Assembly (NCBI GenBank): GCA_965221775.1
Contig: CBDCSU010000004.1
Span: 992,001-1,056,000 of the forward strand
Source: Candidatus Latescibacterota bacterium
GTDB taxonomy: Bacteria; Latescibacterota; UBA2968; UBA8231
Direction: 5' to 3'
Length of the DNA stretch: 64,000 nucleotides
The notes under the pieces were generated by a model. That model saw only the letters and a list, made by a program, of their open reading frames with translations, ran no database searches and was not told the origin of the DNA. Shown piece after piece: positions 38,484-53,333 of this stretch. The position numbers and the translations under genes are program-made. Position 1 is the first letter of the stretch. Each line of letters opens with the position of its first letter.

Positions 38484-40145
38484 ATGATGCGGCCGAGCCG
38501 AACCATGGTCGAAGGGCCTTCCCGCGCCGGAGCGCGGGCCATGTACAAGGCCGTCGGCTACGACGACGACGCCCTCGGCCGGCCGCTGATCGGCATCGCC
38601 AACACGTGGACGGAGATCGGCCCCTGCAACTACCACCTGCGGGACCTGGCGGAGCACGTGAAGCGGGGGGTGCGCGAGGCCGGCGGCACGCCGATGGAGT
38701 TCAACACCGTCGTCGTCTCCGACGGCATCACCATGGGCACGGAGGGGATGAAGACATCTCTCGTGAGCCGCGAGGTGATCGCCGATTCCATCGAGCTGGT
38801 GGCGCGCGGCCACATGCTCGACGGCGTGGTCGCCATGACCGGATGCGACAAGACCACTCCGGGAGCGATCCTCGCCCTGGGCCGCCTCGACCTTCCGGCT
38901 CTCGTGTTCTACGGCGGCTCGATCATGCCCGGGAAGCACCGCGGCGCCGACCTGACGATCCAGGACGTGTACGAGGCGATCGGCGCCCAGGCCGGGGGCC
39001 GCATCAGCGCCGACGAGCTCAAGGCGATCGAGGATGCCGCCTGCCCGGGCCCCGGCTCCTGCGGCGGCCAGTTCACGGCCAACACCATGGCCACGGCGAC
39101 GGAGATCCTGGGGCTGGCGCCCATGGGATCCGGATCGATCCCGGCTGCCGATCCCGTCAAGGAGGGGGCGGCGGTGGAGGTCGGCGCGATGGCTGTCGAC
39201 CTGATGCGGCGAGGCCTGCGCCCCCGGCAGGTCGTGACCCGACCTTCCATCGAGAACGCCATCGCCTCGATCGCCACCACCGGCGGCTCGACGAACGGGG
39301 TCCTGCACTTCCTCGCCATCGCCCGCGAGTACGGCATCGAGCTGGATCTGGACGACTTCCAGCGCATCTCCGGGCGCACGCCGCTGATGGTCAGCCTCAA
39401 GCCGGGCGGGCTCTTCGTCGCCTCCGACCTGCACGAGGCCGGGGGCGTCGCCCTGGTGGCCGAGCGGCTGAAGGCTCGGGGCTGCCTGAACGAGGGCTGC
39501 CCCACGGTCACCGGGCGCACCATCGGCGAGGAGGCGGACCTCGCCCGGGAGACGCCGGGGCAGGAGGTGGTTCGCCCCGCCGACCGTCCCATCCGCTCCA
39601 GCGGCGGACTGGTCGTCCTGCGGGGGAACCTGGCTCCGGAGGGATGCGTGGTGAAGCTCGCCGGGTACGAGCGTTCCAGGCACGTCGGCCCGGCCCGCGT
39701 CTTCGACCGCGAGGATGACGTGCTCCCGAGGATCGAAGGGGGCGACATCAGGGATGGCGATGTCGTGGTGATCCGCTACGAGGGGCCCGTCGGCGGCCCG
39801 GGCATGCGCGAGATGCTGCAGATCACCGGCGCCATCGTCGGCGCCGGCCTCGGGGAGACGGTGGCCCTGCTCACCGACGGCCGGTTCTCGGGCGCCACCC
39901 GCGGCCTGATGATCGGCCACGTCGCTCCGGAGGCGGCCTCCGGGGGGCCGATCGCGCTGATTCGCGACGGCGACGAGATCACCATCGACACCGAGGCTCG
40001 CCGCGTCGACGCAGCCCTCGACCCGGAGGAGCTGGAGCGCCGCCGGGCGCGGTGGACGGCGCCGGAACCCCGCTACCGGAGCGGGGTGATGGCCAAGTAC
40101 GCGCGCCTCGTCTCCAGCGCCTCCACGGGGGCCGTCACCGGCTGA
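38484..40145 (+). CDS. ilvD: Dihydroxy-acid dehydratase
   Basis: PCNYHL, SDGITMG, GCDKT, CGGQFTANTM, GGSTN, GPGMREM, TDGRFSG; AGGAGG RBS. Confidence 0.97.
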   Translation: MMRPSRTMVEGPSRAGARAMYKAVGYDDDALGRPLIGIANTWTEIGPCNYHLRDLAEHVKRGVREAGGTPMEFNTVVVSDGITMGTEGMKTSLVSREVIADSIELVARGHMLDGVVAMTGCDKTTPGAILALGRLDLPALVFYGGSIMPGKHRGADLTIQDVYEAIGAQAGGRISADELKAIEDAACPGPGSCGGQFTANTMATATEILGLAPMGSGSIPAADPVKEGAAVEVGAMAVDLMRRGLRPRQVVTRPSIENAIASIATTGGSTNGVLHFLAIAREYGIELDLDDFQRISGRTPLMVSLKPGGLFVASDLHEAGGVALVAERLKARGCLNEGCPTVTGRTIGEEADLARETPGQEVVRPADRPIRSSGGLVVLRGNLAPEGCVVKLAGYERSRHVGPARVFDREDDVLPRIEGGDIRDGDVVVIRYEGPVGGPGMREMLQITGAIVGAGLGETVALLTDGRFSGATRGLMIGHVAPEAASGGPIALIRDGDEITIDTEARRVDAALDPEELERRRARWTAPEPRYRSGVMAKYARLVSSASTGAVTG

Positions 40146-40157
40146 GCGGGACCTGCC

Positions 40158-41075
40158 TCAAAGCCGGACCGCGTGCTCTCGCACGTAGGCCTCGACCTGC
40201 CGCCCGGTGTCGCGCCAAGGGAAGGTGCCGCCCGGCGGGAAGTAGTAGTGGTACTCGGCGTATTCCAGGCCGTAGGGCGCCGCCATCCGCCGGTTTTCCT
40301 CCAGTCCGAAGAGCCGGATGTACTCGCGGTCGGCGGTCTCGTCGTCGTCGCCCAGGGCCGGCAGCTTCCTTCCCTCCGCCGCCAGCCGCGCCCTCAGCCG
40401 GCGCCCGTGGGACCCGGCCGGCCCCTGGGACTTGTTGGCCGCCATGGACTCGATCTTCAGCTCCAGGAAGGGGCCGATGTCGGTGACCAGGTTGTAGGGC
40501 GACCCGGGGCGCATGGCCCAGTAGTACTTGTCGCGCACGCCGCGGGGCTTCATCCCGGCCTGCACCTGCTCGGGGTAGTCCTTCGCCGAGGCCGCCATCC
40601 AGCACGCCGACTCCACCAGCTGCCCCGTCACGTAGTGGTCGGGGTTCTCCTCCCACCGGGCCCACGGGTGGAAGCTCATCACCGTGTCCACCTGCAGGTG
40701 GCGGAAGAGGAAGATCAGCCGGCAGCGCTGCTCCAGCATCGAGTTTTCCTCCTGGCGGTGGTTGCGGTAGCCGAGGTTGAAGATGTCCTCGATGCCGAGA
40801 CTGTCGGCCAGGGCGCTCACGTCGACCTCGTTGCTCTTGATGGCGTCGGCGATCGTGCCGGGGCCGCACTTCTCGTCGTTGGTCGTCTGGATGAGGAACG
40901 CCTTGTAGCCCTCGGCGATCAGCTTGGCCACCAGCCCGCCCGAGTAGAGAGGCATGTCGTCGGCGTGGGCCTGGACGATGCCGAGGACCTTGCCTTCGTG
41001 GGGCCGCGACTCGTCGAAGGTGTCGATCCTCACCGGACCGTGGGTCGTGTCTTCCGCGTACCAGCCGTCGTGCAT
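40158..41075 (-). CDS. PIG-L/LmbE-family deacetylase
   Basis: AHADD and NPDHY metal-binding motifs, NKSQ. Confidence 0.85.
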   Translation of the reverse strand: MHDGWYAEDTTHGPVRIDTFDESRPHEGKVLGIVQAHADDMPLYSGGLVAKLIAEGYKAFLIQTTNDEKCGPGTIADAIKSNEVDVSALADSLGIEDIFNLGYRNHRQEENSMLEQRCRLIFLFRHLQVDTVMSFHPWARWEENPDHYVTGQLVESACWMAASAKDYPEQVQAGMKPRGVRDKYYWAMRPGSPYNLVTDIGPFLELKIESMAANKSQGPAGSHGRRLRARLAAEGRKLPALGDDDETADREYIRLFGLEENRRMAAPYGLEYAEYHYYFPPGGTFPWRDTGRQVEAYVREHAVRL

Positions 41076-41123
41076 GGGAATCTCCTGGCCCGATGGGAAG
41101 CGGCGCGCCCGGCGGTCTCCGCT

Positions 41124-42614
41124 TCAGTCCGCTCCGGCCGAGGCCTTGATCCGCTTCAGCTCGGCCGCCTCGGGAAGGGCCTTGTATAGGGGGTCGAGGG
41201 GGAAGCACCCGGAGATCATGCCGTTGCGCGGCGCCGTGGTGCAGTCCGAGAAGGTGCGGCAGATCCGCTTGCGCGCCAGGGGCCGCCCCCCGAGCACGTC
41301 CGCCGGCAGGTCCGGATAGGCCAGCACCATGCGCCCGAGGCCGGCCAGATCGACCTCGCCGGCGCGCACCAGGGCCTGGGCGGCATGGGGCAGGTATTCC
41401 TGCAGATAGGAGTACCCCGAGCCGACGATCACCATGTCGGGGTGGCGCGCCTTGACCTCGCCGACCATGGCCAGCTGGCGGGCCACGCCCACGAGGGGAT
41501 CCTCCGGCGGCTGGTACCCGTCCGAAGGCGGGAAGAGGGCCGGCCGCTGGATGTGGGGATTGTAGTACGGGCTGCCGCAGGAGAGGTTGACCAGCCGGAT
41601 GCCGAGGTCCCGCAGCAGGTCGAGGAAGCGGAAGGTCTCGGTCAGGTCCCAGGAGTCCGCCGGGTTGCCGCTGTCGGTGCCGAATCCGTAGCGGTAGGGC
41701 AGGTGGTCCTCGTAGGGCTCGGGGATCCCCTGCCCCGGCCGGCCTCTCTCGGCGCCGTCCGGATCGGGCCGGAAGGGCACCCAGTCGAAGGCCGAGAGCC
41801 TGACGCCGATGGCGATCGTCCCGGCCCCCTGGTCGGCGCGGATCCCCTCGACGATCCCGCGCAGGAAACGGGTGCGGTTCTCGAAGGAGCCGCCGAACTC
41901 ACCTGGTCGCGTGAAGCCCGACAGCAGCTCGTGGCCCAGGTACCCGTGGCAGTGCTTGACGTCGACGAAGTCGAACCCCGCCTCGCCGGCGACGCGGGCG
42001 CCGGAGACGTAGAGCTCGATCAGACGATGGAGCTCGTCGTCGCTGACCGGCTCGTGGCCGGCGCCAATCCCGAACCTGCGGTCCAGGATCGGGTGGCGGT
42101 AGGCGATGACCGGCTCGGGGCGGTCCTTGCGGAAGGGCCGGCAGAACCGCCCGGAGTGGGTCAGCTGCAGGCCCGCCACCAGGCCCTCACCGGAGCCGAA
42201 CCGCTCCCGGTGAGCGCTGCGGAGCAGGCCGTGGAGCTCGGCGATGCCGCCGGCCGTCTCCTGCGAGCAGATCAGCTGGTTCGGGTTCGCCCGGCCCTCG
42301 GGGCAGACGGCGCAGGCCTCGCCGCCCCAGATCAGCTTCGCCCCCGAGATCCCGAAGTTGCGCCAGCGCTGCCGAACGAGGTCCGTGGGCCGGCCGTCGC
42401 CGGTCCCGTCCCAGCCCTCCATCGGCTGGATGGCGAAGCGGTTCCCGATGCGCAGGCCGGACCCGGCGTCGATCGGCTGCGCCAGCGGGGACCCGGGCGC
42501 CGCCAGGACCTCGTCGTCGCAGGGGATGCGCACACCGAGGGCGGCGCAGTGGGCGCGCAGGTCGGCGGCGCTCCGGAAGGTGGAGACCCGCTTGTGGCGG
42601 GGCCGCTCGCCCAA
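41124..42614 (-). CDS. NADH:flavin oxidoreductase (Old Yellow Enzyme-like)
   Basis: QPMEG, QLTHSGR, DVKHCHGYLGHE, GGSFENR, GLGR, CRTFSDC. Confidence 0.9.
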   Translation of the reverse strand: MGERPRHKRVSTFRSAADLRAHCAALGVRIPCDDEVLAAPGSPLAQPIDAGSGLRIGNRFAIQPMEGWDGTGDGRPTDLVRQRWRNFGISGAKLIWGGEACAVCPEGRANPNQLICSQETAGGIAELHGLLRSAHRERFGSGEGLVAGLQLTHSGRFCRPFRKDRPEPVIAYRHPILDRRFGIGAGHEPVSDDELHRLIELYVSGARVAGEAGFDFVDVKHCHGYLGHELLSGFTRPGEFGGSFENRTRFLRGIVEGIRADQGAGTIAIGVRLSAFDWVPFRPDPDGAERGRPGQGIPEPYEDHLPYRYGFGTDSGNPADSWDLTETFRFLDLLRDLGIRLVNLSCGSPYYNPHIQRPALFPPSDGYQPPEDPLVGVARQLAMVGEVKARHPDMVIVGSGYSYLQEYLPHAAQALVRAGEVDLAGLGRMVLAYPDLPADVLGGRPLARKRICRTFSDCTTAPRNGMISGCFPLDPLYKALPEAAELKRIKASAGAD

Positions 42615-42620
42615 GGCCTC

Positions 42621-43397
42621 CTAGGAGCCCTTCCCCGGGGCCGGCGCCGGTCGGCGCAGGAGGCGGATCCCGACTCCGACTCCCGCCGCAGCCATGACGA
42701 GACTGAAGACCTGGGCCCCGGTCAGCCCCCACAGGACCTCCGGGTTGAGGCGGATCGTCTCCACCCAGAGCCGGGCGGCCCCGGCGAGGACGAGGTAGAC
42801 GCAGAACAGCAGACCGGGCCTCCCCTCCAGGGACCTGCGCAGGCGCCAGAGCAGGCCGAATGTGGCCACCCCCAGAAGGGTCTCGTAGACCGGCGTCGGA
42901 TGGACGATCTCGTCGGTGGGCACCACGCCCTTCGGATAGGCCATGCCCCAGGGCAGGTCGGTGGGGATGCCGTAGTCGCCGTCGCCGGCGAGCTGGCAGC
43001 CGATGCGGCCGATGCCGTACCCCAGGGCCAGGCCCATGCCGACCGCGTCGGCCGTGGGCGGCAGCGGCGCTCCATGCCGCCGGATCGTCCAGACCACCGC
43101 CGCCGTGGCCACGAGGAAGCCCCCGTGCCAGGTGAGGCCGCTGCCCGAGAACACGGAGCGCAAGCTCTCGCCCCAGGTGGTCGCGTCGGGCATCTCGAAG
43201 AGGATGAAGTAGAGCTTGGCCCCCGCCAGGCCCCCGAGGATGGCGGCGGTGATCAGGTTGGCGGAGAGCTCGGGATCGATGCCGCGGCGCCGCAACTCGC
43301 TCTTGATGACGAGATGGGCCGACAGGAACCCGAGGACCACCATGGGGCCGAAGGTGGGCAGACGGAAGCTCCCGATCTCGAGCCAGTACGGATACAT
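42621..43397 (-). CDS. lgt: Prolipoprotein diacylglyceryl transferase
   Basis: MYP N-terminus, GAKLY, GLTWHGG, GRIGCQLAGDGDYG, LPWGM, HPTPVYE. Confidence 0.9.
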   Translation of the reverse strand: MYPYWLEIGSFRLPTFGPMVVLGFLSAHLVIKSELRRRGIDPELSANLITAAILGGLAGAKLYFILFEMPDATTWGESLRSVFSGSGLTWHGGFLVATAAVVWTIRRHGAPLPPTADAVGMGLALGYGIGRIGCQLAGDGDYGIPTDLPWGMAYPKGVVPTDEIVHPTPVYETLLGVATFGLLWRLRRSLEGRPGLLFCVYLVLAGAARLWVETIRLNPEVLWGLTGAQVFSLVMAAAGVGVGIRLLRRPAPAPGKGS

Positions 43398-43403
43398 GAA
43401 GGG

Positions 43404-46400
43404 TCAGTCCTCGGCGGGCGGCGCCCGCCCCGGGGTGGCGGAGCCGGCGGATGCCGGCCCCGGGTCAACGATGCGCCGGCGCACGGCCTCGGCGATCTCG
43501 CGGTAGACTTCGTAGGGGGTCAGGCGCTCCTGCAGGCACCGGAACGAGCCGGCTTCGACGGCGGCGCCGAGGCGCACCCGGGCGCGCCGGGGGCTGTCGC
43601 TGCCGGCGCCGGAGAGATCGACCCGGACGGGAACCACCGGCAGGTCCAGCTCCAGGGCCAGGAGGCCGATCCCCGGCCTGTAGGCGCCGACGGCGGAGGG
43701 ACGGGGCCCTCCCTCCGGGAACAGCAGCAGGGGCCGGCGCCGGCCGATGCGCCCTGCCGCCTCCTCCAGGGCCCGCGGCAAGCCGTCCTGACCGGAGAGG
43801 GTCACGAGCTCGGCGAACCAGCGGCACAACCGGGACTCCCACCGGCCTCCGATGGCGTCGTGCCCCTCCACCAGCAGGCAGAGCCCGTCGAGCTCGGGCC
43901 TCAAGGCGGCGTAGACCGCCGCGGCGGCGGCCGGTCCCGGACGGCTGGCAGCCAGGAGAAAGGGGCCCTCAGGCAGGCCCCCGGCGCCATCCACCTCGAC
44001 CCGCAGGGCGGCCCTCAATGCCCTGGACGCGATCGTGCCCAGGGCCGATCTCCCGCTCCGCGCCACGGATCCCGGGCGGCGGAGCACGGAGGACCAGTAT
44101 CCCTCCGCCTCGGACTCCGCCAGGGTCAGACCCGGCCCCACCTCGTCGAGGAGCCGGCGCAGGGTGGTCCGCTCGCGGTCGATGGTCACCTGCCCGGCCC
44201 CGGCCCCCTGCAGGGAGGCCGCCAGCTCGACCGCCATGAGCGAGTCGATCACCGTGTCCAGGGGGGCGTCGGCATGGGCGATGATCTCTCCTACGGCCAG
44301 CCCCGACAACTGGCTCAGCCGGTGGTAGACCTGCCGTTCCCAGGGAGCCAGACCGTCCGCGGCATCCACCTCTTCGGGGGCTCCGCGCTCCAGGTCCTGG
44401 CGCAGGGCCCTGCGGTCGACGCGGCCGTCGTCGAGCCGCGGCAGAGGCCGCCGCTGGATGTGCAGCCGGGCGATCCGCTGCCAGGCCGGCAGGTCGCGGG
44501 AGAGGGCATAGGCCCGTTGCCGGATCTCCTCCTCCGCTTCCGGCAGGTCCAGGTCCCGGGAGCGGGGATCGAGAACGACGACGCCGTGCACCTCTTCGCC
44601 GAGGGTGCGCGCCGACGGCAGGCCGACGACGGCCAGCTCGGCCGTGTGCGGCAGGCCTCCGTAGAGGTCCTCCACCTCGTCGGGATAGACGTTCTTGCCG
44701 CCGCCGGTGACGATCAGGGCCCGCCGCCGGCCGGTGATGAACAGGTACCCGTCCTCGTCGACGTGGCCCACGTCGCCGGTGTGCAGCCAGCCGTCCCGCA
44801 GGACCTCGTCGGTCAGGTCCGGGCGGTTCAGGTATCCCGCGGTGACCGACGGCCCCGAGACCAGGATCTCTCCGTCGTGCCCGAGGGGAGCGTCGATGCG
44901 CAACTCGACGCAGGGCAGGGCAACGCCCACGGAGCCCCGGCGGGCCGCACCCGAAGGATTGACCGTGACGATGGGGGAGGTCTCGGTCAGCCCGTAGCCC
45001 TCGTACACCGTGAGGCCTAGATCGCGGTAGGTGTCGAACAGCGTCTCGCCGAGGGGCGCGCCTCCGGAGACGATCAGGCGCAGTTGCCGCAGCACGTCGA
45101 TGTTGGGCGACCGCCCGCCCTCGGCCCGCGTGTCCAGACGCTGCACTCGATCCGCCAGGATCTTGAGGACCCTCGGCACGGCGAGCATGGCGGTGATTCC
45201 GCGCTCGCGGATGGCCTCGAGGATGTTGCGGCTGTTGAGAGGGCCGTCGAGGTAGACGGTCGAGGCTCCGCTCCACAGGGACATGAGCAGGACCCCGGTG
45301 AACTCGAGGCCGTGGTGCAGGGGCAGCAGGGACAGGATGCGGTCGCTGTCGTGAACGCGCTGCAGCTCCCCCAGGGCCAGGAGATCGGAGATCAAGTTGC
45401 CATGGGTCAGGACCACCCCCCGAGGCTCGACCCGGGTGCCGGAGGTGAAGATGATCGACGCCTCCCGGTCCCGGTCGATCTCCGGCTCCTGGAAGGTGGA
45501 TCCAGTCCCTTCGGCGGCATCCACGGAATCGCCCGAGGCCAGGTCGATTCGGGTACGGACCGCGGCCGGGGGGATCCGGGCGAGGATCGCGTCATCGGCC
45601 ACCAGGGCCCGGGCCTCGGAGAAGGCGGCCAGCCGTTCCACCTCCTCCTCCGGCGTCTGCGGGTCCACGGGCAGGACCGCCGCGCCGAGGAAGGAGCAGG
45701 CCATGTAGGAGACGACCCACTCGGGGCCGTTCTCCCCGGCCAGCAGGACGCGGTCCCCGGCGCCGAGGCCGAGACCCTGCCAGCGGCCGGCGCGCTCCTC
45801 CACGCGCTGCAGCAGGTCGGCGTAGGTGATCCTCCGCCAGCGGCCGCCGCGGCGGGCCTCGAGGGCGACGCGCCCGGCGTGGCGGGCGCAGGTCCAGCGC
45901 AGCAGGTCCGGCAGGGTGGCGATCTCGCGCTCCGCCCGCAGTCGCTCCTCCTCGGCCCCCGGCTCCCCGGGCGGCTCCGGCAGCGCCGCCTCCACGGCGC
46001 TCTCCTCGCGCAGCACGTGGCGCCGCAGGCCGGGCAGGTGGATCCCGGCCACGTACTCGGACCAGTCGATGGCGGTGACGTCCATGTCGAAGGTGGCGCG
46101 CTCGTCCGGCGGAAGCGACTCGTACAGGGCCCGGGTGCGTCCGGTCTCGAAGCGGCAGTCGAGGTGGGTGTAAGGGTGGTAGATCTCCACGTAGTAGAGC
46201 ACGCGCTGCAGCCGGATCCGGGCCGTCGCCAGAAGCCGCCGCTGCCGGGGCCGCGGCGAACGGCCCGGCAGGTCGAGGAGCCGCTCGCGGAGCCGGAGCG
46301 GAGCCAGATGCTTGAGCCGGAAGACGAACCGGAAGAGGCGCAGGCTGGGATAGCGCCAATCGGGCAGGGTCGGACGGCGGCCGTCGCGATCCGGCATGGG

Positions 46401-47597
46401 CGACCGACGGAAGTGGGCGCGCACGATGTCGAAGAGAGAGCTCAGACGTACCGGGTTCTCGGTGCTCGTGGCCACCTGGAAGACCTCCACGGCCTCGGGC
46501 CGAGCCCGCACCGCGGCGGCGATCGCGGCGTTGACCACCCGGTCCACCGGGATCACGTCGAGGATGATCTCCGGTCGCGCCGGGAAGTCGGGCACGAGTC
46601 CCCGGCCGTAGGCAACCAGCAGCGGGTCCATCACCTTCAGGCCCGTGATCCAGCCGGGCTCCGGATCGGCGAGGCTGCTCTCGATGATGCTCGGACGGAC
46701 GACGACGACCGGCACCTCCCCGCGCCGCAGGCTGAGCATCTGCTCACCCATGGCCTTGGTATAGGTGTAGACGTCGTTCCACCCGTGCTCGCGGGCGCGG
46801 CGCATCCCCTCGACCACCAGCTCTCCCCGGACCCAGCGGTCCCGGCGGTCCTCGACGAGCTGTTCCAGCCGGGCGGGCGTCAGCTTGCGGCTGCGGGACT
46901 TCCCGTACTCGCGGACCACCTCGCGCTTCAGCCGCCTCGTGAACTCCTCCTCCGCGGCTTCCTCCCGGAGGCGCCGGCAGGCGGCGCGGCAGTCCGCCAC
47001 CTCGCTCACCGGATCGAAGCCGGGTCCGCCGCCGTCGATGACCTGGCGCATGTCGCGGTCGACGGGCAGGGGCTCGTCGGCGATCGTCCCCTGGCGCCGG
47101 CCGTTGACGTAGGCGGTGGAGACGTGCACGAAGTCGACGTTCCGCCTCGAGGCCCGGGCGAGCTCCATCAGCGCCATCGGACCTCCGACATTGGCCTGGA
47201 GCGCCACGTCCAGGGGTTCGTCGAAGACGACGGTGGCGGCGCTGTTGAAGATCGTGTCGACCTCCGCCGTGAGGCGCTGCCGGTCCTCGGAGGACAGCCC
47301 GAGGTCGGGCTGGCGCTCGTCGATGGCCACGGGGACGACCTTCTCGCGCAGGCGTTCCCAGCGGCCGGGGTCGGCCCCGGCGACCCACTGGAAGAGGGCG
47401 GTGTTGTAGAGCTCCTGGAGCCGCTCGGAGGGCGCGATCTCGCGGCCGTCGGGCCGGCGGCGGGGCCGGATCAGCAGGTAGACGCGGCGGACCTCATCCC
47501 CGAGATCGCGCAGGATCTTGGCCAGCAGGGCCTGGCCGACGAACCCGGTGCCGCCGGTGATCAACAGACTTCGGTCCGTGTAGTACTCGCGGATCAT
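43404..47597 (-). CDS. Multidomain fatty acyl reductase - acyl-AMP ligase - ACP - PlsC-like protein (ElbD-like)
   Basis: TGGTGFVG, HVSTAYV, YTYTK, RPSIIES (FAR); FTSGT, YEGYGLTE, TGD, GKNVYP (adenylation); IDSLMAVEL (ACP); LLFPEGG, PVVPV (acyltransferase fold). Confidence 0.88.
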   Translation of the reverse strand: MIREYYTDRSLLITGGTGFVGQALLAKILRDLGDEVRRVYLLIRPRRRPDGREIAPSERLQELYNTALFQWVAGADPGRWERLREKVVPVAIDERQPDLGLSSEDRQRLTAEVDTIFNSAATVVFDEPLDVALQANVGGPMALMELARASRRNVDFVHVSTAYVNGRRQGTIADEPLPVDRDMRQVIDGGGPGFDPVSEVADCRAACRRLREEAAEEEFTRRLKREVVREYGKSRSRKLTPARLEQLVEDRRDRWVRGELVVEGMRRAREHGWNDVYTYTKAMGEQMLSLRRGEVPVVVVRPSIIESSLADPEPGWITGLKVMDPLLVAYGRGLVPDFPARPEIILDVIPVDRVVNAAIAAAVRARPEAVEVFQVATSTENPVRLSSLFDIVRAHFRRSPMPDRDGRRPTLPDWRYPSLRLFRFVFRLKHLAPLRLRERLLDLPGRSPRPRQRRLLATARIRLQRVLYYVEIYHPYTHLDCRFETGRTRALYESLPPDERATFDMDVTAIDWSEYVAGIHLPGLRRHVLREESAVEAALPEPPGEPGAEEERLRAEREIATLPDLLRWTCARHAGRVALEARRGGRWRRITYADLLQRVEERAGRWQGLGLGAGDRVLLAGENGPEWVVSYMACSFLGAAVLPVDPQTPEEEVERLAAFSEARALVADDAILARIPPAAVRTRIDLASGDSVDAAEGTGSTFQEPEIDRDREASIIFTSGTRVEPRGVVLTHGNLISDLLALGELQRVHDSDRILSLLPLHHGLEFTGVLLMSLWSGASTVYLDGPLNSRNILEAIRERGITAMLAVPRVLKILADRVQRLDTRAEGGRSPNIDVLRQLRLIVSGGAPLGETLFDTYRDLGLTVYEGYGLTETSPIVTVNPSGAARRGSVGVALPCVELRIDAPLGHDGEILVSGPSVTAGYLNRPDLTDEVLRDGWLHTGDVGHVDEDGYLFITGRRRALIVTGGGKNVYPDEVEDLYGGLPHTAELAVVGLPSARTLGEEVHGVVVLDPRSRDLDLPEAEEEIRQRAYALSRDLPAWQRIARLHIQRRPLPRLDDGRVDRRALRQDLERGAPEEVDAADGLAPWERQVYHRLSQLSGLAVGEIIAHADAPLDTVIDSLMAVELAASLQGAGAGQVTIDRERTTLRRLLDEVGPGLTLAESEAEGYWSSVLRRPGSVARSGRSALGTIASRALRAALRVEVDGAGGLPEGPFLLAASRPGPAAAAAVYAALRPELDGLCLLVEGHDAIGGRWESRLCRWFAELVTLSGQDGLPRALEEAAGRIGRRRPLLLFPEGGPRPSAVGAYRPGIGLLALELDLPVVPVRVDLSGAGSDSPRRARVRLGAAVEAGSFRCLQERLTPYEVYREIAEAVRRRIVDPGPASAGSATPGRAPPAED

Positions 47598-47908
47598 GCG
47601 ACGTGGAGGGCCGTGGGACGGGAGGGGAAGGAGGACGTAACTCTCCGTCGAATCTGTATGTTATGTATACGGTTGCGGCCGAACAAGGAGACCGGCGCGG
47701 CGTCAGGCGGGCGGCGGGGACCGGCCCTCTGCCCCCTCGCCGCGGTCCTCGTCCTCGGCTCGCCGGCGCGGCTCCTGGCGGGTGATGTAGGGATGCCGCA
47801 CCCGTCGGCGCAGTGCCTCTCGATCCGGCTCGGGACGGCCCGAGGCGTCAGAACTGCAAGGTCCATCCTTCATGAGACCAAGTGTACGCCGTGTATCCGG
47901 AAGCTGAA

Positions 47909-48823
47909 ATGACCGACCCGGACCGACGGCGCCAAGCCTGGACCCTGATCGCGAATCCGGCGGCGGGCGGGGGACGGGGCGCCCGGGTGGCGGAGCGCGG
48001 CCGGCGCCGCCTGCTCCAGGCCGGCATGGAGGTCTCCCTCGACTGGACGAGCCGGCGGGGACAGGCCCGGGAGCTGGCCGCCGCCGCCCGGGACCGCGGC
48101 TCCGCCGTGGTCGTCGTCTGCGGCGGCGACGGCACCGTGGCGGAGGTGCTGCCGGTGCTGGCGGGCGGCGCAACGAGCCTCGGACTCCTGCCCGCGGGGA
48201 CCTGCAACGACCTGGCCCGCGCCCTGGGGATCGGCATCTCCGAAGACCCGGCCATGCGGGTACTGCTCGAAGGGCAGCCCCGGCCGATCGATCTGGGCCG
48301 CTGCGGCGACCGCCTCTTCGCCACGGTGGCCTCCTTCGGCTTCGACGCGGAGGTCGGCGAGGAGATGGCCGAAGGCCGTTCGCCCCTCCCCGGAACGGCC
48401 GGATACCTGTACACCGCTCTCCGGCGTCTGCGGGGATACCGGCCGGCCCCGGTCTGTCTCCGGGGCGAGTTCGGCGAGCGCGAGCAGGAGGTCTTTCTCC
48501 TGGCCATGGGCAACACCCCGTCCTACGGAGGCGGCCTGCGCATCTGCCCGGAAGCCGACCCGACGGACGGACGGCTCGATCTCTGCCTGGTGGACGGCGG
48601 CATCTCCACCCGCGAGGTGCTCGCCCTGGTTCCCAGGATCTTCCGCGGCGGGCACGTGGGCTCTGCCGCGGTGCAGATGCTGCGCTCCTCCTGGGTGGAG
48701 ATCGAGGCCCTCGACGGCAGTCCCATGTCCCTGCGCGCCGACGGCGAGCGTCTGTGCGAGACCCCGGCCGTTGTGCGCGCCGAGCACCACGCCCTCAGGG
48801 TGATCCACCCCGGCCCTGCCTAG
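47909..48823 (+). CDS. Diacylglycerol/lipid kinase (YegS/DagK family)
   Basis: NPAAG, GGDGT, PAGTCNDLAR, GFDA, GNTPSYGGG, DGE. Confidence 0.92.
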   Translation: MTDPDRRRQAWTLIANPAAGGGRGARVAERGRRRLLQAGMEVSLDWTSRRGQARELAAAARDRGSAVVVVCGGDGTVAEVLPVLAGGATSLGLLPAGTCNDLARALGIGISEDPAMRVLLEGQPRPIDLGRCGDRLFATVASFGFDAEVGEEMAEGRSPLPGTAGYLYTALRRLRGYRPAPVCLRGEFGEREQEVFLLAMGNTPSYGGGLRICPEADPTDGRLDLCLVDGGISTREVLALVPRIFRGGHVGSAAVQMLRSSWVEIEALDGSPMSLRADGERLCETPAVVRAEHHALRVIHPGPA

Positions 48824-48957: not shown

Positions 48958-49929
48958 ATGGCCACCAGGGCACAGAGAGTCCGTCTCGCCCTCTTCCTCG
49001 CCTTCTCCATCAGCGTTCTGGCCGGCTTCCTGCTCGTGGTGGCCGGGTCCCAGTTGCTGCTGAAGCGGGTGACCTACTACATCGAGTTCGACGAGTCCGT
49101 CGGCGGTCTCTCGGCCGGTGATCCCGTCAAGTACCAGGGTATCACCGTCGGGCGCGTGGAGGGCGCGCGGGTCTCGCCCGACGAGATCGGCGTCGTCCTC
49201 GTCGAGATCTCCCTGGAGGCCAGCAAGGTTCCCAACCTGATCCGCACCGACACGCAGGCGCGGCTCTTCAGCCAGGGCGTGACCGGCCTGAAGTACATCG
49301 AGCTGAGCTCCGGGTCGCCCGACGCGCCGCTCCTCGAGCCGGGTGAGGTGCTGCCGGCGCGGGCGACCTTCCTGTCGAACATGGAGGAACGGGCCGAGGT
49401 GCTCATGGTGCGCATCGAGGACCTGCTGACCAATCTCACGGCGATGACGGCGGAGCGGAACCAGCGCCGCCTGGGCCGGATGATCGAGGCCGGCTCGGAG
49501 CTGATGGAGAACACCAACGCCCTGATCACGGACAGCCGGGGCGACTTGGGAGAGACGGTCGCCAACCTGGCCCTGGTCACCGACAACCTCGCGGCCACCA
49601 CCGCCTCCATGAACGCCGCCATGGACTCGATCCGGGCCCTCACCTCGGCCGAGGAGACGAGGGCCGCCCTTGTCGATCTCAGGCTGTCGATCCGCGTCCT
49701 CCGCGAGCACCTCGAGGGCCCCGTGCCCGAGCTGCTGGCCAGCCTGCACCAGATGACGGGGACGATCGACGCCACCGTCACCCACGTCGACCGGACGGTA
49801 CTGCAGAGCCGCAAGAACATCCTCGACGCCATGCAGAGCCTGGAGGAGACCCTGCTCAACGTGCGCCAGGCCACCGAGCTGATCCGCGAGAACCCCGCCG
49901 TGCTCCTTCGTGGAAGGACGGACCCATGA
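48958..49929 (+). CDS. MCE/MlaD-family protein with long helical C-terminus
   Basis: N-terminal TM; FDESVGGLSAGDPVKYQGITVGRV, QGVTGLKYIEL; about 170 aa helical region ending NPAVLLRG. Confidence 0.92.
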   Translation: MATRAQRVRLALFLAFSISVLAGFLLVVAGSQLLLKRVTYYIEFDESVGGLSAGDPVKYQGITVGRVEGARVSPDEIGVVLVEISLEASKVPNLIRTDTQARLFSQGVTGLKYIELSSGSPDAPLLEPGEVLPARATFLSNMEERAEVLMVRIEDLLTNLTAMTAERNQRRLGRMIEAGSELMENTNALITDSRGDLGETVANLALVTDNLAATTASMNAAMDSIRALTSAEETRAALVDLRLSIRVLREHLEGPVPELLASLHQMTGTIDATVTHVDRTVLQSRKNILDAMQSLEETLLNVRQATELIRENPAVLLRGRTDP

Positions 49930-50720
49930 CCCTCCGTTCAAGCTGCGGACGGGGCGCCGCGGTCCTGCTGGCCCTGCTGGCGGCCGGCGGCTGCTCGAGT
50001 CTCTTCGCGGGCAAGGCCGAGATCCCCGAGCGCCGCAAGTTCATCATCGAGGGCCAGCCCCTGCCCCTGAAACTGCCCTTCTCGGAACGCCCCTACGAGA
50101 TGAAGGTCCAGATCGAGCGCTTCGCCATCTCCAAGTTCTACGAGCGCGATCAGATCATCTACCGGCTGTCACCCGAGGAGATCCGCGACGACCGCTACAA
50201 CCTCTGGGCCGTGCGGCCGAGCGAGATGATCACCAACGCCGTCGCCGGCTACCTCCGGGGGGCGGGCCTGTTCACCGACTTCCGCCCGGACTTCCTCGAC
50301 GTCGCCCCGGAGTTCACCCTCACCGGGACGATCGACGCCATCGAGCGCTTCGATTCGGGAGACCGCTGGTGGGCGCGGCTCGACGGCTCCCTGAAACTCG
50401 TGGACGGCGAAGGCCGGATCTTCTGGCAGCACCGGTTCGCACCGAACGAGATGGAGGTCTTCGAACGGGACATGGTCTTCACCGTGCAGGGCATGAACCA
50501 GATCCTGCTCCAGAACATGATCGAGGCCATCCGCTCTCTCGACCGGGCCCTGCTGATCCGCAAGGCCAGCGCCGAGGGCCGCGACCTGACGGGGCTGCTG
50601 GAGGAGGAGGGCGGGAACGGGATCGCCGTGCTGACCGAGGACCAGACGGAGGAGGTCCCGCGCGAGACCGAGGACTACATCGTGGTGCCGGGGAAGCTGG
50701 CGCCGCAGGGGGACCGATGA
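49926..50720 (+). CDS. PqiC-like ABC auxiliary lipoprotein
   Basis: Lipobox AGG-C; YERDQIIYR, YNLWAVRPSEM, LTGTIDAIE; follows MCE gene with overlap. Confidence 0.8.
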   Translation: MTLRSSCGRGAAVLLALLAAGGCSSLFAGKAEIPERRKFIIEGQPLPLKLPFSERPYEMKVQIERFAISKFYERDQIIYRLSPEEIRDDRYNLWAVRPSEMITNAVAGYLRGAGLFTDFRPDFLDVAPEFTLTGTIDAIERFDSGDRWWARLDGSLKLVDGEGRIFWQHRFAPNEMEVFERDMVFTVQGMNQILLQNMIEAIRSLDRALLIRKASAEGRDLTGLLEEEGGNGIAVLTEDQTEEVPRETEDYIVVPGKLAPQGDR

Positions 50721-52231
50721 TGCGCACCCCCCTGGCCTGTGCCTTCCTCCTCGCCGTGACCATGGCCGCCGCGGCCGACGAGAGCACCTGGTCGGCCGCC
50801 TCCCCCCACGCCCAGTTGTCTCGCGACCCGGCCCTGCTGCCCAAGGGCAAGGGGATGCTTTTCATCCCCACCATGACCCTGCCCATCGGCAACGAGCCCA
50901 AGGTCCAGGTCTTCCGGGACGGCCGCGAGGTCCGGTTCGCCTCCCCGGGCCGCGGCCTGGCCCTCGACCCCGGGATCTACCAGGTCCGGTTCGGCTCCGG
51001 GAACCTCGCTCAGCTGATCCGCAAGGACGTGCCCATCTTCGAGGACGAGACGACGCTGCTGAAGCCGACCTGGTCGGCCCTGGTGATCGACGTCATCGAT
51101 CAGACACGGACCTCGGTGAACGAGAGCTACGAGCTCTTCGACGAGAGCGGCGAGAGCTACGGGCCCGGTTTCGGCATCGAGGAGGAGCGGGGAGAGCGGG
51201 TACGCACCTGGATTCTGAGGCCCGGGGTGTACAGCGTCGTGCGCCTCGGCGACTCCTTCGCCACCATCGACAAGTTCAGCGTGCAGCTGCTGCCGGGGGT
51301 CGTGACCCAGCGCAGCCTGGTCTACGACAGCGAGGCCGGTGAGTTCACCTCCTTCTACCAGCGGCCGCTGCTGCACACCCTGACTCCGCGCGAGACCTCC
51401 GCCGTCCTCTCCCAGACCGAGCTCTCCGGCTCCGTCCGCGTCAACACCTCCCAGAAGACGGCCGGCGACAATCTGACGAGCGCGAACCTCGCTCTCCAGC
51501 TCTTCAACCACACGCGCTACAACACCGACCGCCACTTCGCCAGCATCCGCGTCCTCATCGAGCAGGGCGACAGCTGGCAGGAAGGCCAGGAGCTGCAGAA
51601 GGGGATCGACCGCGCCGAGACCCGCGCCACCTACATATACCGGCTGTCGCCCCGCATCGGCCCGTACCTTCGCGGCGTGATCCACTCCAGCGTCTTCCCC
51701 TCGGAGACGCGCTTCCCGATGCCGCGCGACCTGATCCGCAACACGACCAGCGGCCGCATCGACACCCTCAGGCAGGTCACGCGGTTCACCACGGCACCCT
51801 CGTTCTCGCCGATCACCTTCCGCGAAGGCCTCGGCATCAACTCCCGGGTGTTCCGGTTCTTCGCCCTGAACACCGACCTGCGCCTGGGCATCGGGGCGCT
51901 TCAGGAGGTGTACAAGGACTTCTTCGACGTCCGCACCGACTCGGTGGCCACGAGGGTTACCGAGCTCAAGTCGTCCTCCACCTCCGGCGTCGAGGCTCTC
52001 GTGATCCTCGACGCCCGCCTGTCGAGGCTGGTCAGCCTCGACTCGGAGTTCGACATCCTCATGAGCTCGCCTGACTCGCAGGAGTGGTTCTTCACCTGGG
52101 AGAACCGCCTGCGCATCGCCCTGACGAGCTTCGTCAACCTCGACATCACCGTCGATCTCGAACGGACGCAGGGACTGCGGCGCCTGGCCGCCCGCGAGCA
52201 GGTACTGCTGCGCTTCTCCCGGCTCTTCTGA
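50717..52231 (+). CDS. Hypothetical secreted protein, probable outer-membrane beta-barrel
   Basis: Signal peptide; N-terminal beta-sandwich-like part; C-terminal alternating amphipathic strands ending LLRFSRLF. Confidence 0.7.
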   Translation: MMRTPLACAFLLAVTMAAAADESTWSAASPHAQLSRDPALLPKGKGMLFIPTMTLPIGNEPKVQVFRDGREVRFASPGRGLALDPGIYQVRFGSGNLAQLIRKDVPIFEDETTLLKPTWSALVIDVIDQTRTSVNESYELFDESGESYGPGFGIEEERGERVRTWILRPGVYSVVRLGDSFATIDKFSVQLLPGVVTQRSLVYDSEAGEFTSFYQRPLLHTLTPRETSAVLSQTELSGSVRVNTSQKTAGDNLTSANLALQLFNHTRYNTDRHFASIRVLIEQGDSWQEGQELQKGIDRAETRATYIYRLSPRIGPYLRGVIHSSVFPSETRFPMPRDLIRNTTSGRIDTLRQVTRFTTAPSFSPITFREGLGINSRVFRFFALNTDLRLGIGALQEVYKDFFDVRTDSVATRVTELKSSSTSGVEALVILDARLSRLVSLDSEFDILMSSPDSQEWFFTWENRLRIALTSFVNLDITVDLERTQGLRRLAAREQVLLRFSRLF

Positions 52232-52235
52232 CACC

Positions 52236-53333
52236 GTGGACGTGCAGCCCGAGGCCGGCGGCCGCCTCCGCATCACCGGGGCCTGCACCGTGGAGTCGGT
52301 GGCGGCAGGGTCCCGGCAGGTCCGGCTGCTCCTCCGCGACAGCGCGCACGCCGAGCTGACCGCCGACCTGTCGGGGATCACCCGCCTCGACACGGTGGGC
52401 GCCGTGTGGCTGCGGCGCCTGCCCTCCCTGGCATCCGAAGCCGGCCGCGGTCTGCACCTGGCCGCGGCGCCGGCATCGGTTCAGGCCCTGATCGACAGCG
52501 TCGACGCGGGCCCGCCGCCGGCCGCCGGCGCCGACTCCCGGGACGGGACGGGATTCCTCGAGCAGGTCGGCGAGGGCGCCTACCGCCGTTTCCAGGCGGG
52601 CCTCGACTTCCTGTACCTGGCCTCCGACCTGACCTGGGCCGCGGCCGCCTCCCCCTTCCGGCGACGGGGCGTGCGGCGCGGCGACTTCGTGCGGCAGTCG
52701 GCCGTCGTCGGGGCGGACGGGCTGCCGATCGTCGCCGTCATCCTCTTCCTGGTGGGCGGCGTCTCCACCCTGCAGGCGGCGGCCCAGCTGCGCCGCTTCG
52801 GGGCCAACGTGCTGGTGGCCGATCTCCTGTCCATCGGCATCACCCGCGAGCTGGGCCCGCTGATGACGGCGATCGTCATCGCCGGCCGCTCGGGGTCGGC
52901 CTTCGCCGCCGAGATCGCCTCGATGAAGTTCAACGAGGAGATCGACGCCCTGCGCACCATGGCCCTCGACCCGCTGCGGCTCGTGGCCGTACCGAAGATG
53001 TGGGCCATGCTCCTCACCCTTCCCCTGCTGACGATCGCCGCCGACTTCGTCGGTCTCCTGGGAGGTACGGTGACGGGGGTCCTCTCCCTCGACATCTCGC
53101 CCCAGGCCTTCGCCGGGCGCGTGCAGAGCGCCCTGTTGCTGAAGGATGTCCTCACCGGCCTGGTGAAGTCCCTCTCCTTCGCCTGGGTCATCACCGTCGT
53201 CTCCGTCTACCGGGGCCTGCGGGCGGGGGGCGGCGCCGCCGGCGTCGGGGCGGCGACCACCTCCTCGGTGGTCTCGTCGATCTTCGCGATCATCGTCCTC
53301 GACCTCACCTGGGGCCTCGTCTTCTACCTGTGA
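52236..53333 (+). CDS. MlaE-family permease with N-terminal STAS domain
   Basis: DLSGITRLDTVG (STAS); RELGPLMTAIVIAGRSGSAFAAEIASMK, EEIDAL, VGAATTSSVV. Confidence 0.93.
   Translation: MDVQPEAGGRLRITGACTVESVAAGSRQVRLLLRDSAHAELTADLSGITRLDTVGAVWLRRLPSLASEAGRGLHLAAAPASVQALIDSVDAGPPPAAGADSRDGTGFLEQVGEGAYRRFQAGLDFLYLASDLTWAAAASPFRRRGVRRGDFVRQSAVVGADGLPIVAVILFLVGGVSTLQAAAQLRRFGANVLVADLLSIGITRELGPLMTAIVIAGRSGSAFAAEIASMKFNEEIDALRTMALDPLRLVAVPKMWAMLLTLPLLTIAADFVGLLGGTVTGVLSLDISPQAFAGRVQSALLLKDVLTGLVKSLSFAWVITVVSVYRGLRAGGGAAGVGAATTSSVVSSIFAIIVLDLTWGLVFYL

Follow-up and report, generated by a model that had tools for sequence, protein, structure and literature searches.

We analysed a window of 64,000 nucleotides (nt) of the genome of a Candidatus Latescibacterota bacterium (contig CBDCSU010000004.1, positions 992,001 to 1,056,000), whose assembly, here called G000, comprises 5.36 Mb in 6 contigs with a G+C content of about 71%. 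This work concerns three genes on the minus strand of the window, namely a gene for an ElbD-type four-module protein (43404-47597, 1397 amino acids (aa); open reading frame, translation and Pfam), an lgt gene (42621-43397, 258 aa; PF01790 (LGT), 152.6 bits against a cut-off of 24.9) and a gene for a FMN oxidoreductase of the OYE family (41124-42614, 496 aa; PF00724 (Oxidored_FMN), 79 bits). As read from the sequence, the ElbD/lgt junction consists of a TGA, 6 nt and an ATG, and the lgt/OYE junction of a TAG, 6 nt and a TTG. On the same strand, and by the coordinates 48 nt beyond the OYE gene, there is a gene for a PIG-L family deacetylase (40158-41075, 305 aa; PF02585, 46 bits; BshB1-like, 60 bits, below cut-off). 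Coordinates and Pfam agree with the layout given in an earlier note made from the letters of this DNA, i.e. a 1397-aa protein 6 nt upstream of lgt, followed by a flavin oxidoreductase and a PIG-L protein. The analysis described below indicates that the 1397-aa protein is likely an ElbD-type enzyme with a role in ether-lipid synthesis, and that the adjacent lgt, judged from copy number and phylogeny, is the ordinary copy of its lineage.

The first module of the ElbD-type protein, at residues 1-540 (45978-47597, minus strand as for the other modules), is a reductase module (FAR) with matches to NAD_binding_4 (PF07993, residues 13-357, 210 bits) and Sterile (PF03015, residues 464-531, 44 bits). 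It is followed by an acyl-AMP ligase (ACS) module at residues ~560-1075 (44373-45920), matching AMP-binding (PF00501, residues 567-923, 257 bits) and AMP-binding_C (PF13193, residues 974-1048), by a module like an acyl carrier protein (ACP) at residues ~1085-1165 (44103-44345), recognised by alignment only through a DSL motif with its serine at 1119, and by an AGPAT-like module at residues ~1195-1375 (43473-44015), which lacks the catalytic motif and matches PF01553 below threshold. More than 2200 homologues of the 1397-aa protein were found; we aligned 111 sequences of at least 1300 aa (110 homologues and the window protein) and used a separate alignment of 19 sequences for the active-site residues. 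In the latter, the GxxGxxG-type site and the residues S160/Y163 and Y277/K281 of the FAR module were invariant. The ACP of the window protein had no Pfam match; Ser1119 was invariant in 19/19 aligned homologues, some of which carry PF00550, and a DSL or NSL motif was kept in 110 of the 111 full-length sequences.

The earlier note had proposed a FAR-adenylation-ACP-acyltransferase set of the kind found in Myxococcus ElbD. The FAR and the ligase were recovered by Pfam and the ACP by alignment, but the acyltransferase remained below threshold, with its HX4D motif replaced. As for the likeness to ElbD, the order of the modules is the one described for Myxococcus xanthus (FAR, ACS, ACP, AGPAT-like), where the gene belongs to the elb operon and the ether-forming step is given as unknown (PMC9131029), but neither the HX4D motif nor the elb operon context is found in the window.

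Precisely, PF01553 matched the acyltransferase module of the window protein with an E-value of 0.004 and 17.4 bits, against a cut-off of 23, and the module has SRPGPAA in place of NHxxxxD and FPEGGPRP in place of FPEGTRS. The 15 sequences of the closest group (at least 57% identity, window protein included; P0001, P0005-09 and P0011-19) all lack NHxxxxD and have a changed FPEGTRS block as well, and the motif is kept in 90 of the 96 remaining full-length homologues. The module is not decaying, since it is 83-91% identical among the five nearest homologues, hence as conserved as the FAR module. We read it, from these alignments, as a retained non-catalytic domain that is inactive in the window genus. 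In six other genera of the same taxonomic family (f1; families are numbered f1 to f14 in this work) lgt is instead accompanied by a protein of ~540-590 aa that consists of the FAR only (genomes G010, G011, G013, G017, G023 and G024), hence the FAR is the constant part of the arrangement. A link between the loss of HX4D and the adjacency to lgt was considered and rejected: lgt adjoins the gene in the loci L008-L018, yet NHxxxxD is kept by homologues that are similarly distant (44-46% identity).

In G000 the ElbD-type gene is the only FAR-domain match (E<=1e-60). The same genome has a stand-alone AGPS homologue (G000:C4:169708-171552, corresponding to L131:9708-11555), located on the same contig as the window at a distance of ~820 kb, which matched mammalian AGPS (4bby) with an E-value of 3e-153 over residues 42-608 and 2uuu with an E-value of 1.3e-91. 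AGPS, which needs a fatty alcohol, was found in 38 of 41 relatives. An ether-lipid role of the ElbD-type gene is plausible because a strong AGPS homologue is present in the genome and because this gene is its only FAR-domain match; the suggestion of the earlier note, an ether-lipid or fatty-alcohol role outside myxobacteria, stands in this form, and it is not new to the literature.

Further evidence came from the sister families f2, f3 and f4. In these families the genes for FAR, for a protein that we call X and for AGPS form a cluster on one strand, with a gene for a short-chain dehydrogenase 0.6-1.5 kb downstream (seen in G029, G028 and G040); in G028 an acyl-AMP ligase gene stands before FAR and the dehydrogenase gene follows the AGPS cluster directly. 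On account of this clustering, the FAR orthologue presumably works with AGPS in this class. In G000 the genes for FAR, AGPS and X are scattered over contigs C4 and C6. As for other features of these regions, the AGPS gene of G000 is flanked by unrelated genes (RraA-like and M16 peptidase), and two 648-aa paralogues with DUF6785 and DUF6784 lie near it (L131:1060-3006 and L131:6859-8805, G000:C4), one of them beside a solute-binding protein. In G032 the cluster is split between X and AGPS by an inserted DUF4276 gene and an open reading frame of 587 aa (L120:4221-6589), which look like a small mobile or defence-type cassette.

Protein X (635-685 aa) is encoded at G000:C6:650180-652291 (L135) and, in relatives, at L133:5155-7209, L132:5145-7085 and L134:5827-7821. 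It lies between FAR and AGPS in the sister families and is present in 40 of the 41 relatives. No match to X was found in Pfam, in NCBIfam or by sequence in the PDB, either with the protein alone or with a profile, nor was any similarity to GNPAT detectable, and only 66 representative clusters matched it among 1.84 billion proteins. X has an HX4D-like motif in register with the acyltransferase motif of ElbD (a weak hhalign match, E=0.0018, probability 15%). Its predicted model had a predicted local distance difference test (pLDDT) score of 85.8, and the best Foldseek match was PlsC (5kym; E=4.9e-4, probability 1.00), followed by GPATs and PatA; an earlier AlphaFold model built from 4 sequences had a pLDDT of 58 and was not used. 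A language-model look-up returned AGPAT-type clusters with a score of 0.91, which we considered as a lead only. Going by the predicted fold, X is a candidate for a bacterial dihydroxyacetone phosphate (DHAP) acyltransferase, i.e. a GNPAT analogue, of a new sequence family, and a complete FAR / acyltransferase / AGPS route seems to be present in the class. The loss of HX4D in the ElbD-type enzyme would fit this, because a working acyltransferase would be available elsewhere, in the form of X.

To describe the reach of the gene order, we compared 80 loci around relatives, represented by 15 untruncated conserved loci, the truncated L007 and 64 others. In 15/15 untruncated loci with a full-length homologue of at least 45% identity, ElbD was followed by Lgt and then by OYE on one strand. 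With four Lgt queries, an Lgt gene within 9 kb was found in none of the 64 other FAR/ElbD loci, which come from other lineages; 34 of these hold distant full-length homologues, in metagenome-assembled genomes (MAGs) titled Poribacteria, Acidobacteriota, Planctomycetota and others (the genome of L062 is flagged unpublished). The closest loci are titled Latescibacterota, plus one 'Gemmatimonadetes' and one 'Handelsmanbacteria' MAG, and the Lgt tree puts all of them in f1; the Lgt sequence of the 'Handelsmanbacteria' MAG is identical to that of G021.

Within f1, the three genes were contiguous in 20 of 25 genomes, and 2 more genomes were consistent with contiguity across contig ends. G013 has FAR and OYE adjacent and lgt on another contig, and G018 and G020 lack a window-type Lgt, an OYE and an intact FAR. 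In a wider sample, evaluated from coordinates, FAR and OYE were within ~5 kb of each other in 55 of 64 f1 genomes, against 0 of 53 genomes of other families having both. In the sister families f2-f4 lgt is located elsewhere than FAR. On these gene orders, the FAR/ElbD-lgt-OYE cluster is a trait of single origin of one taxonomic family, f1. The G+C content differs strongly within the class, being ~71% in the window and 54-59% in the fetched stretches of G013, G017, G030, G032 and G040.

The lgt gene itself was examined for copy number, phylogeny and active-site residues. Exactly one LGT match was found in 32 of the 41 relatives, the closed genomes G006, G017, G025 and G032 among them, and this sole match scored 144-174 bits, i.e. 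in the range of the window type, save in G018 and G028. The gene adjacent to ElbD was the only LGT match in 5/5 genomes holding related loci, and signal peptidase II (LspA) was present in G000 and in 5/5 tested genomes of related loci. In a quick maximum-likelihood tree, the careful search being unfinished, the 25 operon-linked (f1) and the 12 unlinked (f2) Lgt sequences formed sister clades, with f3 next. Since it corresponds to the sole LGT match in most relatives, since LspA is present and since the tree follows the taxonomic families, the window lgt is by these sequence-based measures the ordinary copy of the lineage, vertically inherited, and there is indirect indication that its product acts as the lipoprotein transferase of the cell. 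A dedicated paralogue was ruled out, as the gene is the sole LGT match in closed relatives having LspA.

The proposal of the earlier note, a link of lgt with ether-lipid synthesis leading to ether-containing lipoprotein anchors, did not survive as it was put, because lgt is an ordinary copy and its adjacency is limited to one family; such anchors are possible, unsupported. In regard to the count of lgt copies and the conservation of the link, which the same note had named as a check, the copy is of housekeeping type (yet G000 has a second lgt) and the adjacency is conserved, but only in f1. The two LGT-family genes of G000 are the window copy and a copy on contig C5 (G000:C5:1333742-1334473; L001:1453-2334), which exceeds the TIGR00544 cut-off and carries Y26, H103, N146 and E151. 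A second lgt of this canonical type occurs in 7 of the 41 genomes, and the G000 copy clusters in the tree with six others and with that of E. coli.

The window Lgt scored 100.7 with the TIGR00544 equivalog, below the cut-off of 118.9. It keeps the equivalents of R143, R239, E243, R246, D129, H196 and G154 and the HGG motif, the first four residues being kept in all 42 window-type Lgt sequences. At positions 26, 146, 151 and 235, which are essential in E. coli (Y, N, E and Y), the window Lgt has F, C, D and A. The E. coli mutants Y26F, H103Y, E151A/Q and Y235F/L/S are reported as inactive, with Y26 hydrogen-bonding the sn-2 ester oxygen of phosphatidylglycerol (PG) and R143 binding the sn-1 ester oxygens (PMC4728403). 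Phe stands at the Y26 position in all 30 operon-linked Lgt sequences, against Tyr in 12/12 unlinked sequences of f2. Among 24 genomes of other lineages that carry FAR/ElbD, 25 of 29 Lgt sequences had the pair Y103/C146, which was also present in all 15 genomes of the same phylum that were examined and gave no FAR match; Y235 is kept in acidobacterial genomes bearing ElbD. The same-phylum genomes without a FAR match and the acidobacterial Y235 ruled out the Lgt variants (Y103, C146 and a residue other than Tyr at 235) as markers of ether-lipid capacity. Their distribution ties the unusual residues to the lineage and neither to the operon nor to ether lipids.

The explanation that we favour, to which we give a probability of roughly 60%, is that of a genuine ElbD-type alcohol-forming enzyme feeding an ether-lipid route with AGPS and X, in which the partnership with lgt is organisational and belongs to an envelope-lipid operon that arose once in f1. 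It starts from direct observations: the genes and domains as identified, the loss of the motif, the distribution of the gene orders, and the finding of AGPS and X in the genome. According to this explanation, the ligase module would activate a free fatty acid and load it on the ACP of the same protein, and the FAR module would reduce the thioester to a fatty aldehyde or alcohol. The alcohol would then pass to the stand-alone AGPS, to replace the acyl group of acyl-DHAP and so yield 1-O-alkyl glycerolipids. The acyl-DHAP would probably be made by the separate protein X, the enzyme's own acyltransferase module being predicted to be non-catalytic. The partnership with lgt would most likely be organisational and not a dedicated ether-lipoprotein pathway.

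Several points weigh against this explanation. The ligase module has, as read from the 19-sequence alignment, Arg at two positions that ANL enzymes usually fill with Lys, one in the P-loop and the other the C-terminal catalytic residue, and its activity is therefore not assured. An orthologue of the short-chain dehydrogenase of the sister-family cluster was sought in G000 and only generic matches of 29-31% identity were obtained. The likeness to MXAN_1528, the M. xanthus ElbD, is judged from the described domain order. The favoured explanation leaves the role of the OYE unexplained, and a functional tie could be the reason why lgt is so closely kept between FAR and OYE across the family. The lineage has no cultured relative, and its ether-lipid role is predicted from genes. 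In addition, according to PMC11868695, isolates of Pontiella carry elbD homologues although no ether lipids were found in them.

This last caution, together with the OYE, also bears on an alternative that we consider unlikely, in which the product is not an ether lipid but an aldehyde or alcohol for wax esters, for signalling lipids or for aldehyde handling with the OYE, the use of AGPS being incidental or nil. Thermus-type ene-reductases were the best PDB matches of the OYE protein, whose KHCHGYL aligns to HMAHGYL of 5nux, and we take the H-x-x-H-G-Y of the protein to be an intact ene-reductase site. The FAR of f1 has left the FAR-X-AGPS cluster and adjoins this reductase, an adjacency that persists in G013 with no lgt between the two genes. 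The two genes also share most of their distribution by family in the phylum, as both are in f1-f4 and f7 and neither is in f5, f6 and f9-f13. Against this, they are discordant in f8 (OYE in 4/5, FAR in 1/5) and in f14 (FAR only), and the neighbours of the OYE, which we tried as a functional clue and discarded, are unrelated in f2, f3 and f4 (amtB/P-II, a transposase and mreBC). Moreover, the FAR in question is the only one found in a genome keeping both AGPS and X, and AGPS needs the alcohol. The OYE gene is present in single copy in 39 of the 41 relatives and belongs to a large subfamily, the best 120 of more than 8000 matches all being at least 60% identical, with few named ones, from several phyla. 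Single in-frame stops (TAG, TAA or TGA) were seen inside OYE or FAR matches in G023, G024, G017, G126, G124, G138 and G116.

A functional coupling of lgt to the pathway is comparably improbable in our view. It would mean that the PG of f1 is partly 1-O-alkyl-2-acyl-PG and that the co-expressed Lgt transfers an alkyl-acyl-glyceryl group, yielding ether-containing lipoprotein anchors. The position of lgt between FAR/ElbD and OYE in 20 of the 25 f1 genomes, with spacers of few nt, is what such a coupling would give, and the AGPS pathway occurs throughout the class. In the same direction points the Phe that replaces Tyr26 in 30/30 operon-linked sequences, given that Y26 of E. coli contacts the sn-2 ester of PG, but this replacement is confounded with family membership, and Y103 and C146 are shared by the 15 genomes of the phylum that were examined and gave no FAR match. 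Besides, the linkage arose once, with no Lgt within 9 kb in the 64 other FAR/ElbD loci; the families f2-f4 share the ether-lipid genes and have lgt elsewhere; G013 has FAR and OYE adjacent and lgt on another contig; and any Lgt might use ether-PG without an operon. Still more doubtful is a stricter form of this coupling, in which the sole Lgt is translationally coupled to the sole alcohol-forming enzyme and uses 1-O-alkyl-2-acyl-PG, with Y26F as an adaptation to this donor and the OYE as a third step of the route.

That the Lgt has been neofunctionalised to transfer diacylglyceryl to a fatty alcohol instead of cysteine, forming the ether bond itself, is highly improbable, for all that it scores 100.7 against the TIGR00544 cut-off of 118.9, carries Y26F, N146C, E151D and Y235A at positions where E. 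coli mutants are inactive and has a canonical-type counterpart in G000, as it is the sole LGT-family gene in closed relatives that keep LspA and so must serve lipoprotein maturation there, as this pattern of residues is generally found in the phylum and in other phyla as well, and as the AGPS of the genome is available for forming the ether bond.

Returning to the favoured explanation and its operon, we infer that the ElbD-type gene, lgt and the OYE gene are co-transcribed, and the divergent intergenic region at 47598-47881 (284 nt, richer in AT at 40-70 nt upstream of the start of ElbD) is likely the promoter region of the ElbD gene. A scan of the block for sigma-70 promoters and terminators gave 0 sites of either kind, against 0.2 and 1.3 expected, and is uninformative at 71% G+C. 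In the metatranscriptomic run X20, one contig of 863 nt, ~91% alike, spans 43468-43801 and 42937-43396, bridging the 3′ end of ElbD and the 5′ part of lgt. Contigs from RNA libraries show neither strand, ends nor a single transcript, DNA may be present in such libraries and stretches that are not covered carry no meaning; hence we considered the bridging contig as a weak hint of ElbD-lgt co-transcription.

In the runs X20 and X5, seven pieces of the block are matched by contigs of RNA libraries at 90-95% likeness, and the full 8.4 kb at window positions 39800-48200 are contained, with 43 differences, in one DNA contig that stems from another study. From these contigs we conclude that close strains are present in several sponge samples. 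At least half of the sampled words of the window were present in 19 runs, whose uncoded organism labels are sponge metagenome (12) and marine metagenome (2).

As regards the surrounding genes, the PIG-L gene was ruled out as part of a conserved unit, as among the related loci it adjoins the block only in L004. On the other side of the intergenic region, and divergently transcribed from ElbD, there is a YegS/DAGK-type lipid kinase gene (47882-48823, plus strand; PF00781 and PF19279; TIGR00147, 149.5, above cut-off), followed on the plus strand by Mla/MCE-type lipid transport genes (48958-53333), namely MlaD (48958-49929), ABC_trans_aux (49926-50720) and MlaE (52236-53333), assigned by Pfam. The kinase gene is in the same divergent position in 12 of the 15 conserved loci (not in L004-L006) and at the edge of the truncated L007. 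MlaD adjoins the kinase gene in L003 and L008-L018; in L004 MlaD is upstream of ElbD and no kinase gene was found, and L005 and L006 have neither. A kinase of this type is also the most widely recurring neighbour of ElbD homologues, with 12 distant loci having one immediately before the homologue in the same orientation (L038, L041, L044, L045, L050, L053, L056, L057, L060, L062, L064 and L065). It may phosphorylate alkyl(acyl)glycerol. Of the 20 genes called in the window from 26.6 to 63.3 kb, none was found to encode a HAD or NAD-epimerase protein, in agreement with the earlier note, which had said that the other elb genes are not adjacent.

ElbD homologues outside myxobacteria, Latescibacterota included, are already in print. 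In PMC11868695, ElbD homologues are given for 50 of 92 Latescibacterota MAGs and AGPS for 67 of 92, and 'standalone elbD hits' are mentioned for sponge Latescibacterota in the preprint 10.64898/2026.06.23.733905. The words lgt, diacylglyceryl and flavin did not occur in the main text of this preprint, and the supplements of these works may list these genes. Among the papers listed by a full-text literature search with 'diacylglyceryl transferase' and 'ether lipid', titles and opening lines of abstracts dealt with archaeal lipoproteins and unrelated topics. In the parts of the literature searched, supplements aside, we did not find the operon context and the inactive acyltransferase module.

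The synthesis of alkyl ether lipids in aerobic bacteria outside myxobacteria is still unsettled, and sponge symbionts are suspected producers. The locus offers a concrete division of labour, in which an ElbD-type enzyme would be reduced to alcohol formation, because its acyltransferase module is predicted to be inactive in the window genus and is lost in six sister genera, and would work together with a stand-alone AGPS and the acyltransferase-fold protein X. An over-reading is also removed: on the above grounds, the neighbouring lgt is the lipoprotein gene that the lineage ordinarily uses, and the odd residues of its active site have no tie to ether lipids. The locus is a gene arrangement specific to its family, not a pathway of a new kind.

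Compared with known systems, the genes of the window resemble the ElbD and AGPS matches reported for Latescibacterota MAGs (PMC11868695; 10.64898/2026.06.23.733905), which come from the same kind of organism and probably represent the same gene family; unlike the present work, these two sources report, in the parts available to us, presence only. The window Lgt is like E. coli Lgt (5azb/5azc) in its LGT family and in the catalytic residues and HGG motif listed above, and is unlike it in having F, C, D and A at positions 26, 146, 151 and 235 and in its length (258 against 291 aa). The 1397-aa protein has the same four modules in the same order as M. xanthus ElbD (MXAN_1528, elbA-E operon), for which a supply of alkyl chains for ether lipids is presumed (PMC9131029). 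In contrast to that protein, its acyltransferase module is without HX4D, and its gene has as neighbours not elbB (HAD), elbC or elbA/elbE (NAD-epimerase), as in the elb operon, but lgt, OYE and a divergent kinase gene with Mla genes. Finally, G000 has a FAR, an AGPS homologue and the acyltransferase-fold protein X, as in the FAR/GNPAT/AGPS route of mammalian peroxisomes and of MXAN_1674-1676 of M. xanthus. The difference is that in G000 the genes are scattered and the FAR is fused to a ligase, an ACP and an apparently dead acyltransferase, not a working GNPAT, whereas the FAR-X-AGPS cluster of the sister families, with its short-chain dehydrogenase, mirrors the MXAN_1674-1676 set as described in PMC9131029 and PMC13012113.

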